64,000 nt of DNA. Source: Candidatus Omnitrophota bacterium. Its GTDB lineage: Bacteria; CAIJMQ01. Made by a program: the position numbers and the translations under genes. Within the stretch, counting starts at the first letter, position 1, and each line of letters opens with the position of its first letter. Below, piece after piece: positions 20,485-26,861 of the stretch. The stretch is from NCBI GenBank assembly GCA_018812925.1, contig JAHJCU010000005.1:145955-209954 (forward strand), given 5' to 3'. Below the pieces are notes generated by a model, which was not told the origin of the DNA, searched no databases, and saw nothing but the letters and a program-made list of their open reading frames with translations.

Positions 20485-20650
20485 ATTTTCTTTCGGAGTG
20501 AGGAACACCGTGAAAATCGGTGACAGTCCCGCTACTGTAAGAGGAGGACGAAAGCTCTTAAGTAAGCCACTCTCCGATGTTATGTCGGAGGGGAAGGTCA
20601 GAGCAAGTAGGTTTAATTCCTTAAGTCAGGATATTCGCCAGAAGAAAAAA
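20485..20650 (+). ncRNA. Cobalamin (B12) riboswitch
   Basis: P1 ttttctttcgg/ccagaagaaaa; AGGAA-caccgTGAAAATcggtg; CCCGCTACTGTAA; GCCACT...GGGAAGG; B12-box AGTCAGGATATTCGCC; btuFCD lies downstream. Confidence 0.93.
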
Positions 20651-20692
20651 TCGCAGACTTTCTTCGTGGAAAGAAGGTGTGATTTTTATTTG
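20647..20692 (+). terminator. Riboswitch expression-platform intrinsic terminator
   Basis: aaaatcgca..ctttctt / aagaagg..tgtgatttt stem followed by a T-rich run. Confidence 0.65.
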
Positions 20693-20759
20693 TATAAAAA
20701 TCTATAAAACCTCCTCAAACTAAGTTAAGTCTTTGCAATAAGTCATAAACGAGGAGGTT

Positions 20760-21515
20760 ATGATGAATTTAAGGATAGATAAATTCCGGATTCAAGATTT
20801 AATAGGGACTGGTTTTACCCTAATAGAACTGTTGGTTGTTATCGCTATCATAGGCATCCTCGCCGCAATGCTTCTGCCCGCTTTAAATCAGGCAAGAGAA
20901 AAAGCAAGAGGAGCTATATGTAAGAGTAATTTAAGACAGTTGTATATGGCTTTTATGTTGTATTCCCAAGACAACGATGGCTATTATTCTCCCACATATT
21001 GTTCTACTTGCATATCTGAAATCGGATGGGATTTTGCTACTGATGATTGGATTAATTATAGATTGGGCATTATTGGAGATTATTTGCAAGAAGAAAAGAT
21101 ATTTGAATGTCCTTCAAGAATGTCTTTGGCGTCAGCTGATAGACCTTTTACCGGGTATGCTTATAATGCCACACATATCGGGGGGGGATATTTCGACTGT
21201 GCCGCATGGGGAATTTCCCAGGCAGATGCTCCAGTAAAAGTGACCCAAGTAAGAAACTCTTCTGGGACAATTCTTCTGACTGATAGTGCTCTGTGGTCAA
21301 CTTTCACGAATGAAACGATTGCCAATAATTATCTTCGTGCCCCTTTAGATGTTTACTATTATGGACCAAATGTTCACTTCAGACATAGCGGATTTGCAAA
21401 TGTGAATTTTTGTGATGGTCATGTAGAGGCAAGAGGAGAAAAACATAATGTAAGTATTAATGATTCTACTTTGGGAGATTTGTCTGAAGACGATAGTTTA
21501 TATGATTTGGAATAA
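20760..21515 (+). CDS. Prepilin-type N-terminal cleavage/methylation protein, DUF1559-like, H-X9-DG C-terminus
   Basis: [31 protein letters not shown]...[22 protein letters not shown]. Confidence 0.92.
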
Positions 21516-21531
21516 CACCTTATTCATCACG

Positions 21532-22341
21532 ATGAAACAATTTATAACGGTTAAGTATAATCTGAAAAAATTAAAAATTTTAAGACCTTTACCAATAGTA
21601 ACGGGGTTCACTTTAATCGAGCTACTTGTTGTTATCGCCATCATCGGCACCCTCGCCGCAATGCTTCTGCCCGCTTTAAATCAGGCAAGAGAGAAAGCAA
21701 GAGGGGCAGTATGTGCATCCAATCAAAGACAGGTTGCTTTAGCGATGTTTATGTATCAAGATGACTGGGATGGATATTACCCCCCAGCTGCTGTGGATAT
21801 TGTGTCTCCTAATCTTCATAGGTGGCATGGTGTGAGAAGTAGTCCTGGATTACCATTTGACCCTACAAGAGGTCCAATATATCCCTATCTTGGAACAGGT
21901 GAGATTAAGAAATGCCCATCTTTTATAGATTATCTGAGAGGTTTTGAAGCAGGATGTGGAGGATATGGGTATAATGCTCAATTTGTAGGCGGTACTCCAG
22001 GCAACTTTGAACTTTCTGCAAAAGCCTCTCAAATAAAGAACCCGTCTCAAACTATAATGCTTGCTGATTGTGCCTTTTCTTATGACTATTTGGAAGAAGA
22101 TGCAAATATTATTGAGTATTCTTTTGTGGAAGCGGTTTTCTGGGTAGTTTATGGCGGTAGTCCAATACCAAGCACTCATTTCAGGCATATTGAAAGAGCT
22201 AATATAACATTTTGTGATGGACATGTTGAGTTAAGAAAGATGGATTGCTGTCGTGGTGGAAACTGTGAAAATGAAACAGGATGCAAAGCCAATTATATCG
22301 GCTTTGTAGGAACAGACAATACTCTTTATGATAGAGAATAA
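21532..22341 (+). CDS. Second prepilin-type DUF1559-like / H-X9-DG protein
   Basis: [44 protein letters not shown] at 21532 preferred. Confidence 0.92.
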
Positions 22342-22398
22342 AAATAGGGTTTCTATTTGGGAAATGAATTGTTGTTAAAAACTATTTAAGATTGTAAA

Positions 22399-24112: not shown

Positions 24113-24122
24113 TTCTTCAAGA

Positions 24123-25013
24123 ATGACTAATTCCTCATTTCCAAGAACTAATATGCAAACTAAAGGCTATAGTCTATGGTCTATAGTCTATGTTTTGTAT
24201 TTTATCTTTTACATCTTGATTATTAATTCTTCTCTCTTTGCTCAAGATTCAAGTCCGAAAAGAATAATCTCTTTAGGACCTGCGATTACAAGGCAACTTT
24301 CACTTTTGGATGTAGAGGATAAAATTATAGGTGTTACGACTTATTGCAATGTTCCAAATCTTGTTAATACAGAAAGAATCGGAACCGTTCTGGAAGCCAA
24401 TGTAGAAAAGATATTAATACTTAATCCTGATATTGTTTTGGCAACAAATTTAAGTAATCTCAAAACAATACAAAGATTGAAAAATCTAAAGATAAATGTG
24501 GTGGTTTTAGACGAAGTTAAAAACTTTAACGGGCTCTGCGAACAATTTTTAAAATTGGCGCAACTTGTAGGCAAAGAAAAAATTGGCAGAGCAATTATTT
24601 CTAAGGCAGAAGAAAAATTATCAAATCTTTCACAGAAAAATAAAAATTTATCTAAACAAAAAGTAGTCGTCCAAATAGGAGCCAATCCGCTTTGGATAGT
24701 TACGAAAGATTCTATGATAAACAATTTCGTTTTATTGGCGGGTGGGATTAATGTGGGTCCTATAGGGGAAAACGGGCTTGTCAGCAGAGAATATATAGTT
24801 AAACAAAACCCAGATGTAATTATTATTATAGATATGGGAATATTGGCAGAAGAGGAGAAAGGGACTTGGTTAAAATTCGACACTATAAACGCGGTTATAC
24901 AAAACAGAATCCATATATTGGACGCTTACGATATCTGTAGTCCTACACCGTTAAGTTTTGTCGGGACTTTAGAAGAATTATTTGAACTTTTTTATCCGGG
25001 AATAGAATATTAA
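24123..25013 (+). CDS. btuF: Cobalamin ABC transporter substrate-binding protein
   Basis: RIISLGP, IGVTTYC, NVEKILILNPD, AGGINV and PDVIII; riboswitch context. Start may be 24153. Confidence 0.85.
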   Translation: MTNSSFPRTNMQTKGYSLWSIVYVLYFIFYILIINSSLFAQDSSPKRIISLGPAITRQLSLLDVEDKIIGVTTYCNVPNLVNTERIGTVLEANVEKILILNPDIVLATNLSNLKTIQRLKNLKINVVVLDEVKNFNGLCEQFLKLAQLVGKEKIGRAIISKAEEKLSNLSQKNKNLSKQKVVVQIGANPLWIVTKDSMINNFVLLAGGINVGPIGENGLVSREYIVKQNPDVIIIIDMGILAEEEKGTWLKFDTINAVIQNRIHILDAYDICSPTPLSFVGTLEELFELFYPGIEY

Positions 25014-25014
25014 T

Positions 25015-26052
25015 ATGCCAGTATCTAATGGGATTTCCCAAAATAGGAAGAGAAAATTAGTTCGTTGGGCGAGTTGGATATTTATTATGCTAATTTTCGT
25101 TTTAGTCATAGGCTTTATTTCCTTGTGTATTGGCTCCGGAGGGCTTTATTTTAAAGAAATAATATCCGGTATTTTTACAAAAGGCACGCCTGAATTTAGC
25201 ATTCTTTTTGATATTCGCCTGCCCAGAATAATTCTTGCTTTTGTTGTTGGAGGGGCATTATCTTTGGCAGGTGTAATCCTACAGGGAATTTTCAGAAATC
25301 CTTTGGTTGAACCATATACTCTTGGAATTTCCGGCGGAGCGGCTTTAGGCGTAACCTTAAATATTGTTTTTGGCATAGCAAGTATTTTTGGGACGATGTC
25401 CATGCCCATATCAGGTTTTTTAGGAGCTATTGTTGTAATTATCTTCTTGTATTCTTTAAGTATAAACAGAAGAATACTTAAAATGCACGAACTTCTTTTG
25501 TGTGGGGTAATGATAAGTTTTGTGTGCTCTTCAATCCTTATGCTTTTAATGGCTATTTCCAAAACCGAAAATTTACACGGCATTATATTTTGGATGATGG
25601 GTTCTTTGGAACAACCAAACATAAATTTAATATGGATGACTCTTTTTGTATCCATCTTAGGCTTAATTGCTTCTTATTTTTTCTGTTTTGATCTTAACGC
25701 TTTACTTTTGGGAGAAGAAGAAGCAACTCATTTGGGAATAAATGTGGAAAAAACAAAAAGAGCCCTTTTTATAATAGCTTCTGTACTCACGGGGGTTAGC
25801 GTGTCTGTTGTGGGAATAATCGGATTTGTGGGGCTTTTAGTTCCGCATTTTGTAAGGATGTTTGTCGGCAATGATTATCGTATTCTTAATATTTCTGCTT
25901 TTATTGTAGGCGGAGGGTTTCTTATATTTTGTGATACTTTGGCAAGAATTGTTATTGTTCCGTTAGAATTGCCTGTAGGAGTGATTACGGGAATATTGGG
26001 TGGAATTTTATTTATTTATGCAATTCTAAAGAAAAGATTGATTTTTGGATAG
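25015..26052 (+). CDS. btuC: Cobalamin/iron ABC transporter permease
   Basis: IRLPR, QGIFRNPLVEPYTLGISGGA, LGEEEA, GIIGFVGLLVPH and ELPVG. Confidence 0.9.
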   Translation: MPVSNGISQNRKRKLVRWASWIFIMLIFVLVIGFISLCIGSGGLYFKEIISGIFTKGTPEFSILFDIRLPRIILAFVVGGALSLAGVILQGIFRNPLVEPYTLGISGGAALGVTLNIVFGIASIFGTMSMPISGFLGAIVVIIFLYSLSINRRILKMHELLLCGVMISFVCSSILMLLMAISKTENLHGIIFWMMGSLEQPNINLIWMTLFVSILGLIASYFFCFDLNALLLGEEEATHLGINVEKTKRALFIIASVLTGVSVSVVGIIGFVGLLVPHFVRMFVGNDYRILNISAFIVGGGFLIFCDTLARIVIVPLELPVGVITGILGGILFIYAILKKRLIFG

Positions 26053-26060
26053 GCAATAAA

Positions 26061-26861
26061 ATGTTAGAAATAAAAAATATTTTTTGTGGTTATCCTGAGG
26101 GATTTACTCTTAAAAATGTCAGTTTTAAGTTAGAGAAAAAAGAATTTTTAGGCATTGTAGGTCCTAACGGTTCCGGAAAAACCACTCTTCTTAAAACAAT
26201 CACACGACTTCTTAAACCTAAAAAAGGCGAAGTTATTATTGACGGGGTAAATATAGAAAAAATGAAGTTCAAAGAGATTGCTAAAAAGATTGCCGTTGTT
26301 CCGCAGATTTTTAATATGGAATTTGACATAAACGTGGAAGAATTTATTTTCTTGGGCAGAATCCCCCTTAAAAGCACTTTTCAGTTTTTGGAAAATAAAA
26401 ACGATGAAGAAGTGGTTAAAAACGCAATGGAGTTAACAGAAACCGTTAAATTGAAAGAAAGATTGGTCAATAGTCTTAGTGGTGGCGAGATTCAACGCGT
26501 TGCGATAGCACGCGCTTTAGTTCAAGAGCCGCAACTTCTTTTGTTAGACGAGCCGACTTCACATTTGGATATAGGGCATCAAATTAGAATTTTGGATTTA
26601 TTGAGAAAATTAAACAAAGAGAATTTGTTGACAATTGTGGCTATTTTCCATGACCTTAACCTTGCAAGCGAATACTGCAACAGATTATTACTTATGAAGG
26701 AAGGCAAAACTTATTGCATCGGTAAGCCCGAAGAAGTGTTAACTTATCAAGCTTTGGAGGAAGTCTACGACACACCGGTTATAGTTCAAAAAAGCATTGT
26801 GTCCGGAAAACCCTATATATTAGTTGTCCCTCATCCCGAAGAATATAAGCAATCAATTTAA
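26061..26861 (+). CDS. btuD: Cobalamin/iron ABC transporter ATPase
   Basis: GPNGSGKTT, LSGGE, LLDEPTSHLD and HDLNLA. Confidence 0.9.
   Translation: MLEIKNIFCGYPEGFTLKNVSFKLEKKEFLGIVGPNGSGKTTLLKTITRLLKPKKGEVIIDGVNIEKMKFKEIAKKIAVVPQIFNMEFDINVEEFIFLGRIPLKSTFQFLENKNDEEVVKNAMELTETVKLKERLVNSLSGGEIQRVAIARALVQEPQLLLLDEPTSHLDIGHQIRILDLLRKLNKENLLTIVAIFHDLNLASEYCNRLLLMKEGKTYCIGKPEEVLTYQALEEVYDTPVIVQKSIVSGKPYILVVPHPEEYKQSI

Follow-up and report, generated by a model that had tools for sequence, protein, structure and literature searches.

How does a bacterium in which no outer-membrane cobalamin receptor is found bring in the vitamin, and why do two pilin-like proteins stand where the gene for such a receptor is usual? 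Both questions are raised by an operon in a 64,000-nucleotide stretch of DNA from Candidatus Omnitrophota bacterium (GenBank assembly GCA_018812925.1, contig JAHJCU010000005.1, positions 145,955 to 209,954 of the forward strand; hereafter the window), in which a cobalamin (vitamin B12) riboswitch is followed by seven co-oriented open reading frames (ORFs) that encode two prepilins of the DUF1559/H-X9-DG type, two MetH-type modules and a BtuFCD-like trio (Table 1). The pairing of riboswitch and pilin recurs in at least seven bacterial phyla, and throughout them the pilin is the constant member while its B12 partner changes. We are confident that the pilins act in B12 acquisition and, with only moderate confidence, explain the locus as a B12-repressed operon whose pilins would serve corrinoid acquisition upstream of BtuFCD.

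Recurrence of the riboswitch and pilin pair

An earlier note, made from the letters of the window, had proposed the order riboswitch, two prepilins, MetH modules and btuFCD with all genes co-oriented, and this is borne out by a full-length match to the Rfam cobalamin aptamer (RF00174; score 69.6 bits, where the gathering score is 31.5 bits) and by Pfam and NCBIfam matches for the genes. The gaps of about 60 nt or less that it described are indeed found between the genes (about 16, 57, 1, 10, 1 and 8 nt), the distance from the aptamer to the first pilin being 103 nt. This aptamer is the sole Rfam match in the window and the single RF00174 match in the whole assembly of the source genome (G000), which is Ratteibacteria-like, comprises 1.47 Mb in 14 contigs and is 92% complete; its closest homologs bear the name Candidatus Ratteibacteria. 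Each pilin starts with a class III signal peptide: a short basic leader with a G at -1, then F at +1 and E at +5, and next a hydrophobic helix (G/FTLIELL, the slash marking the cleavage site, which in pilin 1 lies between G18 and F19). Pilin 2 passes the cut-offs for PF07596 (23.3 bits) and TIGR04294 (19 bits). Pilin 1 scores 20.2 bits with PF07596, below that cut-off, but has the H-X9-DG motif, and its homologs carry the PF07596 annotation in precomputed form.

We searched 135 Hydrogenedentota genomes with the head of pilin 2 (209 aa, generic N-terminus removed; E <= 1e-15) and found 119 matches in 116 genomes, nearly always one per genome, with 39-52% identity. RF00174 was present in 128 of the 135, mostly once or twice in each. 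A same-strand riboswitch lies at most 6 kb upstream on the same contig for at least 72 of the 119 pilin matches, a lower bound, many contigs being short, and the distances cluster near 0.3, 2.3, 3.5 and 5.5 kb. For several genomes (G044, G153, G173, G178, G188 and G190-G192) the one riboswitch match in the genome is the pilin-linked one.

A wider scan, with one genome per species and alignment of the head only, gave 478 confirmed pilin 2-type loci, of which the best 80 were used for counting. These come from Ratteibacteria, Hydrogenedentota, Armatimonadota, Abditibacteriota, Kiritimatiellia and, within Planctomycetota, from Pirellulales, Phycisphaerae, Sedimentisphaerales and Tepidisphaeraceae. 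Riboswitches in these loci and in the metagenome loci below were called with a covariance model built from 41 Rfam-defined aptamers. Of the 80 loci, 61 have a same-strand upstream riboswitch; where 3 kb or more of upstream sequence is available, 51 of 52 do, and 18 of the 19 loci without one have less than 2.75 kb. For pilin 1, whose relatives bear the names Ratteibacteria and Omnitrophica, we scanned metagenomes and kept 80 of 108 confirmed loci: the riboswitch is directly upstream in 66, and in 13 of the 14 without it the sequence upstream of the pilin is shorter than 500 nt. The linkage, whose absence from other genomes the earlier note had held to speak against its proposal, is thus present for both pilin types.

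These counts bear on the simplest alternative, namely that DUF1559 genes are so numerous that one happens to lie between a riboswitch and real B12 genes with no functional link. The family is large and paralogous, with about five further DUF1559-like genes in the source genome and 68 paralogs in Planctopirus limnophila (PMC10632474). What recurs behind the riboswitch, though, are two specific subfamilies, nearly single-copy, and while gene order and partners vary the pilin stays. All covariance-model matches lie upstream on the strand of the pilin, bar one weak minus-strand match, and the Rfam scans argue against the matches being artefacts of the custom model. That the pairing recurs in other genomes rules out a chance linkage, and we regard the absence of any functional link as extremely improbable.

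The subfamilies can also be told apart from other pilins. In a midpoint-rooted tree of every fifth pilin 2 match, every fourth pilin 1 match and seven other DUF1559 pilins, the riboswitch-linked pilins stand together on a 99/99 branch, apart from six of the seven others, and one long-branch paralog from the source genome falls within the B12-linked side. This topology suggests that the B12-linked pilins form a single clade. The pilin 2 subfamily is marked by the motifs RWHG, FDPxxGP, FExGxGGYGYN and IEYSFxE.

Nearer to the window, all five genomes of the family, the source genome included, have a B12-type pilin behind a riboswitch, followed by btuFCD (with the MetH modules) or by metE. The order in G003 and G004 is riboswitch, pilin 1-type gene, two MetH modules and btuFCD. 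G001, of the same genus as the source genome, has the same order and, in addition, a second riboswitch that leads a third DUF1559 pilin and metE. In G002 (locus L086) the riboswitch is cut by the contig end and is followed by a pilin 2-type gene, the MetH modules, btuFCD and mraZ. Only the source genome has both pilin types in tandem, and close relatives have one type, the other or both. The two heads might, as the earlier note suggested, serve different cobamides. The second G001 locus (contig C33; L032:1173-4470) encodes the third-type pilin, of 259 aa, and the B12-independent MetE (PF01717/PF08267), and some 3 kb further along there is a pilin 2-type fragment that is truncated and contains a stop codon. 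Tandem riboswitches occur 5' of the pilin in L055, L065, L068, L093 and L213.

B12-binding partners of the pilins

In Hydrogenedentota the gene between riboswitch and pilin encodes a protein of 600-750 aa with a signal-peptide-like start, a C-terminal transmembrane (TM) helix and a basic tail, for which no Pfam family was found. A profile of 14 of these neighbours had two matches only in the PDB, both to the BtuH domain as known from Bacteroides thetaiotaomicron. One match is to BtuG1, in its C-terminal extension (8BLW_B, residues 396-658, E = 5.5e-18), and the other to BtuH2 (7BIZ_A, residues 267-486, E = 1.9e-13). BtuH2 binds B12 via its C-terminal globular domain (PMC8941943, PMC10404256). 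The AlphaFold2 (AF2) model of the BtuH-like family, from 14 sequences, has a mean predicted local distance difference test (pLDDT) value of 70.3, with the BtuH-like part (residues 25-310) mostly at 25-80, a prediction of low confidence. No BtuH-like domain was found in the source genome with the Hydrogenedentota neighbour profile.

In Pirellulales and Phycisphaerales the protein encoded between riboswitch and pilin begins with DUF4465, the BtuJ domain (PF14717, E = 1.4e-53 to 4.8e-55; cut-off 25 bits) and matches 9HMU (E = 2.6e-35) and 9FCT (E = 1.6e-26) in the PDB, the DUF4465 half alone being matched there at E <= 0.01. Proteins of the DUF4465 family bind B12 experimentally (PMC13398666). 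With hhalign, the later part of this planctomycetal protein aligns over 91 columns to the N-terminal half of the BtuH-like domain (97.9% probability, E = 5e-13); its BtuH-likeness comes from hhalign and from an iterated search within the 80 loci, which could drift.

Among the 80 species loci, a BtuH-like ORF is found in 29 with the first profile and in 66 with the iterated one, DUF4465 in 42 (phmmer) and BtuF, BtuC or BtuD in 4-5; none has a TonB-dependent receptor. Gene order depends on the phylum: the pilin leads in Armatimonadota and Abditibacteriota, but in Planctomycetota and Hydrogenedentota it is the binder that leads. Behind the 80 pilin 1-type genes we find BtuF (33 loci), BtuC (20), BtuD (19), a BtuH-like protein (18), homocysteine methyltransferase (10) and DUF4465 (3), and BtuF is the commonest direct neighbour. 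The expectation in the earlier note that the riboswitch would assign a ligand to the DUF1559 family therefore stands as a B12 context for two subfamilies. In most lineages a separate BtuH-like or DUF4465 protein adjoins the pilin, which need not itself be the binder.

In Hydrogenedentota, 31 of the 119 pilin matches belong to long open frames, of 500 codons or more. The six long frames that we read (Table 1) encode a BtuH-like protein, its C-terminal TM helix, a short basic loop and a pilin with the G/FTLIELL start. Such a topology would be coherent, with binder and pilin head outside the cytoplasm and the loop inside, and cleavage by prepilin peptidase would part the binder from the pilin. 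The fused layout argues for joint action at 1:1 stoichiometry. Read as prepilins, these frames would have a "leader" of 600-800 residues. A complex prediction for the BtuH-like domain (residues 24-320) and the neighbouring pilin head (30-287) gave a score of 0.02 and a mark of 0.32, which is not evidence either way.

Pairing and fusion with binders could also be read as a sign that the pilin is an adaptor for export or display, that is, a B12-regulated pseudopilin that pushes BtuH-like and DUF4465 binders to the surface, with neither B12 contact nor a role in import. A signal-peptide-bearing protein of these families adjoins the pilin in most pilin 2-type loci and is fused to it in frame in the six cases read, and the binders, not being lipoproteins as they are in Bacteroides, would have to reach the surface in some other way; the source genome encodes three secretins and several ATPases of the GspE type. 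This explanation fails for operons without a binder, such as those of the window, L086 and L087, and BtuF is present in 33 of the 80 pilin 1-type loci. We consider it unlikely.

Many of the riboswitch operons contain a further secreted family of about 310-400 aa, some members having PEP-CTERM-like ends (Table 1). It has no significant match in Pfam or, by single sequence and by profile, in the PDB. A first impression that it might be a beta-propeller was without support and was dropped.

A route across the envelope

The corrin-ring gene CbiC was not found among nine genomes of the class, the source genome included, and MetE was not found in the source genome. Methionine synthase is split there, with the homocysteine- and pterin-binding modules in the operon and the B12-binding module elsewhere, in a separate 228-aa frame (C11:348795-349127; PF02310, 96.5 bits, DxHxxG motif). 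With neither CbiC nor MetE found and with a separate B12-binding module, the cell probably relies on corrinoid from outside for a methionine synthase in three parts. At E <= 0.01 this genome has neither a PF00593 barrel nor a PF07715 plug within its 92% completeness, and no TonB-dependent receptor was found in the four other family genomes. By contrast, a class-level relative (G006) has tandem riboswitches leading a TonB-dependent receptor, exbB-exbD and a tonB-like gene (L037:2060-4713, contig C85). Its receptor has the single plug domain among the nine class genomes, and it has no B12-type pilin; this contrast sets one lineage against one lineage and is suggestive only.

The machinery that such pilins would need is present in the source genome, which has three PF00263 secretins, eight PF00437 ATPase matches (five GspE/PilB-type and three shorter PilT-like) and one PF01478 prepilin peptidase. 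On contig C14, outside the window, three sites (101424-103207, 108411-109495 and 228078-230443) hold two PilT-like ATPase genes, a further tandem DUF1559 pilin pair and a secretin adjoining a GspE/PilB-type ATPase, candidate machinery for the B12-linked pilins.

In the explanation that we favour, the prepilin peptidase would process both pilins, which would join a machine like those of type II secretion or type IV pili as specialised (pseudo)pilin subunits. This machine would span the periplasm and pass through a secretin; the pilins would capture B12 or, in other lineages, receive it from dedicated B12-binding proteins, and would deliver it to BtuF. The vitamin would be captured outside the cell or in the outer periplasm, in the minimal form of Ratteibacteria by the pilin head and elsewhere by BtuH/BtuJ-type binders, and in the source genome the pilins would thus do the job of BtuB and TonB. 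We infer fibre assembly, direct contact with B12 and passage through the secretin. That the pilins are (pseudo)pilus subunits in transit across the outer membrane or periplasm is about an even call, against which we lean slightly, and that the head itself binds corrinoid is more doubtful. Still more tentative is the complete scheme of a TonB-independent vitamin route, with a retractile pilus or pseudopilus, a DUF1559 head that binds corrinoid or docks the binder, a secretin and BtuF.

Several known systems come close to this scheme. The operon resembles BtuB-TonB/BtuFCD systems in its riboswitch leader and in uptake genes that end in a BtuF-BtuC-BtuD type II ABC importer, and differs in that the source genome has no receptor and two prepilins take the usual promoter-proximal place of btuB. 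It shares with the Bacteroides BtuG/BtuH/BtuJ relay, by sequence homology, riboswitch-controlled loci in which the same B12-binding domains occur, here beside pilins and in other phyla. In Bacteroides the binders are lipoprotein-anchored and feed BtuB, with which BtuG forms a complex, whereas here they have C-terminal TM helices or PEP-CTERM-like or dockerin-like ends and are paired with or fused to a pilin, and the source genome has none. With the pili of competence and the pseudopili of type II secretion the system shares the class III signal peptide, E5, the long alpha-1 helix and, in the source genome, prepilin peptidase, secretins and PilB/PilT-type ATPases. It differs from them in its vitamin cargo and in a DUF1559/H-X9-DG head without a solved relative, and is known from genes alone. 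For the inward transport of a cargo, the nearest parallel in action is the retraction of pili that take up DNA. A further parallel is found in the crateriform structures of planctomycetes, where pili-like fibres are reported to bind dextran (Boedeker et al. 2017, PMC5394234). There too capture of a nutrient by fibres is proposed to precede periplasmic uptake, and the pilin 2 subfamily is common in Planctomycetota, but the cargo is a polysaccharide, that work names no pilin gene, and neither there nor here are the fibres linked to DUF1559.

An alternative that is hard to separate from this scheme dispenses with the fibre. The pilin would be a membrane-anchored periplasmic relay whose head passes B12, or a loaded binder, to BtuF, with a porin or TonB-dependent receptor handling the outer membrane. 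This would suit the frequency of BtuF directly beside pilin 1-type genes, the frames in which the pilin is fused to a partner whose C-terminus is a TM helix, a layout that implies 1:1 stoichiometry at the inner membrane, and the TonB-dependent receptors that 34 of the 116 Hydrogenedentota genomes with the pilin possess. A plain anchor would not need the G-1, F+1 and E+5 residues and the 50-residue alpha-1 helix, which a fibre does need and which are kept; the AF2 model of pilin 2 (pLDDT 91.5, predicted template modelling score 0.85) has an N-terminal helix of that length at residues 27-77. No receptor is present in 94 of the 135 Hydrogenedentota genomes, which are without any plug domain, nor in the source genome, and B12, at about 1.36 kDa, is too large for general porins. 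We judge a relay of this kind improbable.

Several observations weigh against the uptake fibre that we favour, in whole or in part. We infer from spacing alone that the pilins and btuFCD share one transcript, and the leader fold is not outstanding (z-score -1.38), the hairpin after the aptamer being weak. One pilin 2-type locus (L142) has no riboswitch despite 6 kb of upstream sequence. A Foldseek search of the PDB with the pilin 2 model returned pilin helices only, at E >= 0.1, with no likeness to a B12-binding fold, and a protein-atlas search with it returned DUF1559-like clusters only; the motifs common to both pilin types (GYxYN, HFRH and CDGH) are generic for DUF1559 and not specific to B12. 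Beside a BtuH-like or DUF4465 binder, the role of the pilin may be just to carry, anchor or export that protein, and the 1:1 ratio in the fusions fits a minor or tip subunit better than the major subunit of a fibre. Finally, plug-domain receptors are about as frequent in Hydrogenedentota genomes with the pilin (34/116) as in those without it (7/19), 6-7 receptors accompany the pilin in each of two Sedimentisphaerales genomes, and in one metagenome locus (L241) a receptor gene lies just upstream of the pilin.

The last of these led us to reject the idea that, as a rule, the pilin replaces BtuB. No receptor was found in two Phycisphaerales genomes and one Armatimonadota genome, and from gene content the pilin system appears to operate in many genomes with no receptor at all, and in others alongside one or more. 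The lack of btuB described in the earlier note is therefore upheld for the source genome, in which the pilins would replace BtuB, and does not extend to all genomes with the pilin. A plug match downstream of the pilin in G066 (C12:32317-32640), on the same strand as the pilin, was rejected as a member of the operon, since a histidine kinase gene lies between the two.

Shortage of B12 might instead induce a pilus that attaches the cell to B12 producers or hosts, with no place for the pilin in uptake. At 1.47 Mb the source genome is small, yet it has much pilus machinery, and the absence of CbiC from the nine class genomes would make for dependence on producers. Adhesion leaves unexplained the pairing and fusion with B12 binders and BtuF in seven phyla of varied lifestyles and with genomes of 1.3-8 Mb, and we think it very unlikely.

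In Planctomycetota and related phyla, few protein families that still have no assigned function are as large as the DUF1559/H-X9-DG proteins, which a 2023 study of essential genes continues to list as unknown (PMC10632474). Through the riboswitch ligand and two proven B12-binder families, two of their subfamilies would be placed in B12 acquisition in at least seven phyla, which makes testable both a role for a pilin-like protein and the way in which B12 crosses the outer membrane in diderms with few or no TonB-dependent receptors. The BtuH/BtuJ families, so far studied in gut Bacteroides, are extended to environmental phyla and to another membrane partner. Since the exchange of B12 moulds microbial communities, an uptake module that had gone unrecognised would alter predictions of which organisms can scavenge cobamides. 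If the explanation is true, the DUF1559 expansions of Planctomycetota and their allies could be a repertoire of ligand-specific nutrient-capture pilins, a counterpart in PVC bacteria to what the expanded sets of TonB-dependent receptors and SusD proteins are in Bacteroidota, with B12 as the first assigned ligand. The riboswitch, BtuFCD, prepilins, BtuH and DUF4465 are each known; their combination, and the B12 context for DUF1559 pilins, we did not find in the literature. Supplementary files aside, there was no report tying DUF1559 or prepilins to cobalamin or its riboswitch, no relevant co-mention of pseudopilin and cobalamin in the text accessible to the search, and none of BtuB with Planctomycetes and pili; the text of the DUF4465 paper contains neither "pilin" nor "planctomyc".

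The window operon and its leader

The coordinates of the operon, its leader and the related frames in other genomes are collected in Table 1. Two starts are uncertain or differ from the listed ORF: pilin 2 may begin at ATG 21502 or 21532, its longest ORF running from 21460, and the ORF of the pterin-binding module is listed from TTG 23288, while in relatives the start is MFTVIGERINM. The best matches of the trio include the equivalog models for BtuF, BtuC and BtuD, all under their cut-offs, and the Pfam families are strong; a specificity of the trio for B12 is suggested by the riboswitch context. The homocysteine and pterin modules (22399-24112) lie under a riboswitch that is probably of the OFF type, and repression by B12 of an enzyme that depends on B12 is unusual.

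Table 1. Positions of the riboswitch, genes and leader elements in the window, and of related frames in other loci (L numbers)
Feature	Position	Strand	Evidence
Promoter-like site	20435..20463	+	TTTACC/TTACCA, 16-17 nt spacer, TG-TATAAT; 14 nt 5' of aptamer
Cobalamin riboswitch aptamer RF00174	20477..20656	+	Rfam, 69.6 bits, E = 4.2e-15, model positions 1-189
Expression platform, predicted	20646..20759	+	RNA fold of 20620-20770 plus sequence
Pilin 1, prepilin-type DUF1559/H-X9-DG protein, 251 aa	20760..21515	+	PF07963 26.5 bits, TIGR02532
Pilin 2, prepilin-type DUF1559/H-X9-DG protein	21532..22341	+	PF07963, TIGR02532, PF07596 33.7 bits, TIGR04294 19.0 bits
Homocysteine S-methyltransferase module, stand-alone MetH-type	22399..23310	+	PF02574 E = 2e-63; TIGR02082 metH region 2-314
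Pterin-binding methyltetrahydrofolate:corrinoid methyltransferase module	23312..24112	+	PF00809 E = 1.1e-25; NF005719 310.9 bits, cut-off 259
BtuF-like periplasmic substrate-binding protein	24123..25013	+	PF01497 E = 9e-25; NF002894 BtuF 78 bits (<234 cut-off)
BtuC-like permease, FecCD family	25015..26052	+	PF01032 300 bits; best NCBIfam = BtuC models, under equivalog cut-offs
BtuD-like ABC ATPase	26061..26861	+	PF00005 E = 2.4e-36; last gene before mraZ (dcw) cluster
BtuH-like + prepilin single frame	L069:4320-7634	-	
BtuH-like + prepilin single frame	L072:5020-8028	+	
BtuH-like + prepilin single frame	L073:3886-6738	-	
BtuH-like + prepilin single frame	L074:3658-6387	-	
BtuH-like + prepilin single frame	L076:5334-8030	+	
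BtuH-like + prepilin single frame	L071:4017-6641	-	
Further secreted family member	L084:3026-4246		
Further secreted family member	L077:7915-9090		
Further secreted family member	L079:7653-8723		
Further secreted family member	L078:7375-8472		
Further secreted family member	L098:8123-9145		
Further secreted family member	L091:2587-3528		

The promoter-like site is a pattern match from a consensus scan (10/12 matches, with TG). The predicted fold of the leader has a hairpin (20646-20687) with a U-rich stretch on its 3' side, and an anti-Shine-Dalgarno sequence, CCUCCUC (20710-20716), would pair with the Shine-Dalgarno sequence GAGGAGG (20751-20757) directly 5' of the start codon of pilin 1. This arrangement may form the expression platform, and the riboswitch is probably an OFF switch through which B12 would repress the operon. 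Scanning for terminators gave 8 sites in comparison to 4.8 +/- 2.4 expected, none of them within the intergenic gaps of the operon, which speaks neither for nor against internal termination. The mraZ gene that follows the operon is preceded by its own promoter consensus (12/12, at 26974-27001).

A groundwater metatranscriptome (X16), kept as contigs, contains an exactly matching contig on the aptamer (20508-20646) with a word depth of 186, and seven contigs on coding parts of the operon with depths of 2.5-7.3, values that cannot rank the parts of a transcript. This coverage is a hint only, as DNA may be present and uncovered parts carry no meaning. The difference in depth between aptamer and coding parts would fit premature termination at the riboswitch, contig depth being an unsound measure of it.

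Upstream of the operon, between pheS and the riboswitch (15208-20401), the window encodes a 913-aa protein with Big_7, TSP3 and HEAT repeats, a 284-aa HEAT-repeat protein and a 532-aa protein that begins like a signal peptide and is without a Pfam family. This block looks like an insertion, since pheS directly adjoins the riboswitch in G003. In one Hydrogenedentota locus, a match to the Acido-Lenti-1 small RNA (L053:1129-1174; 50.4 bits, gathering score 37) lies 5' of the BtuH-like/pilin frame.

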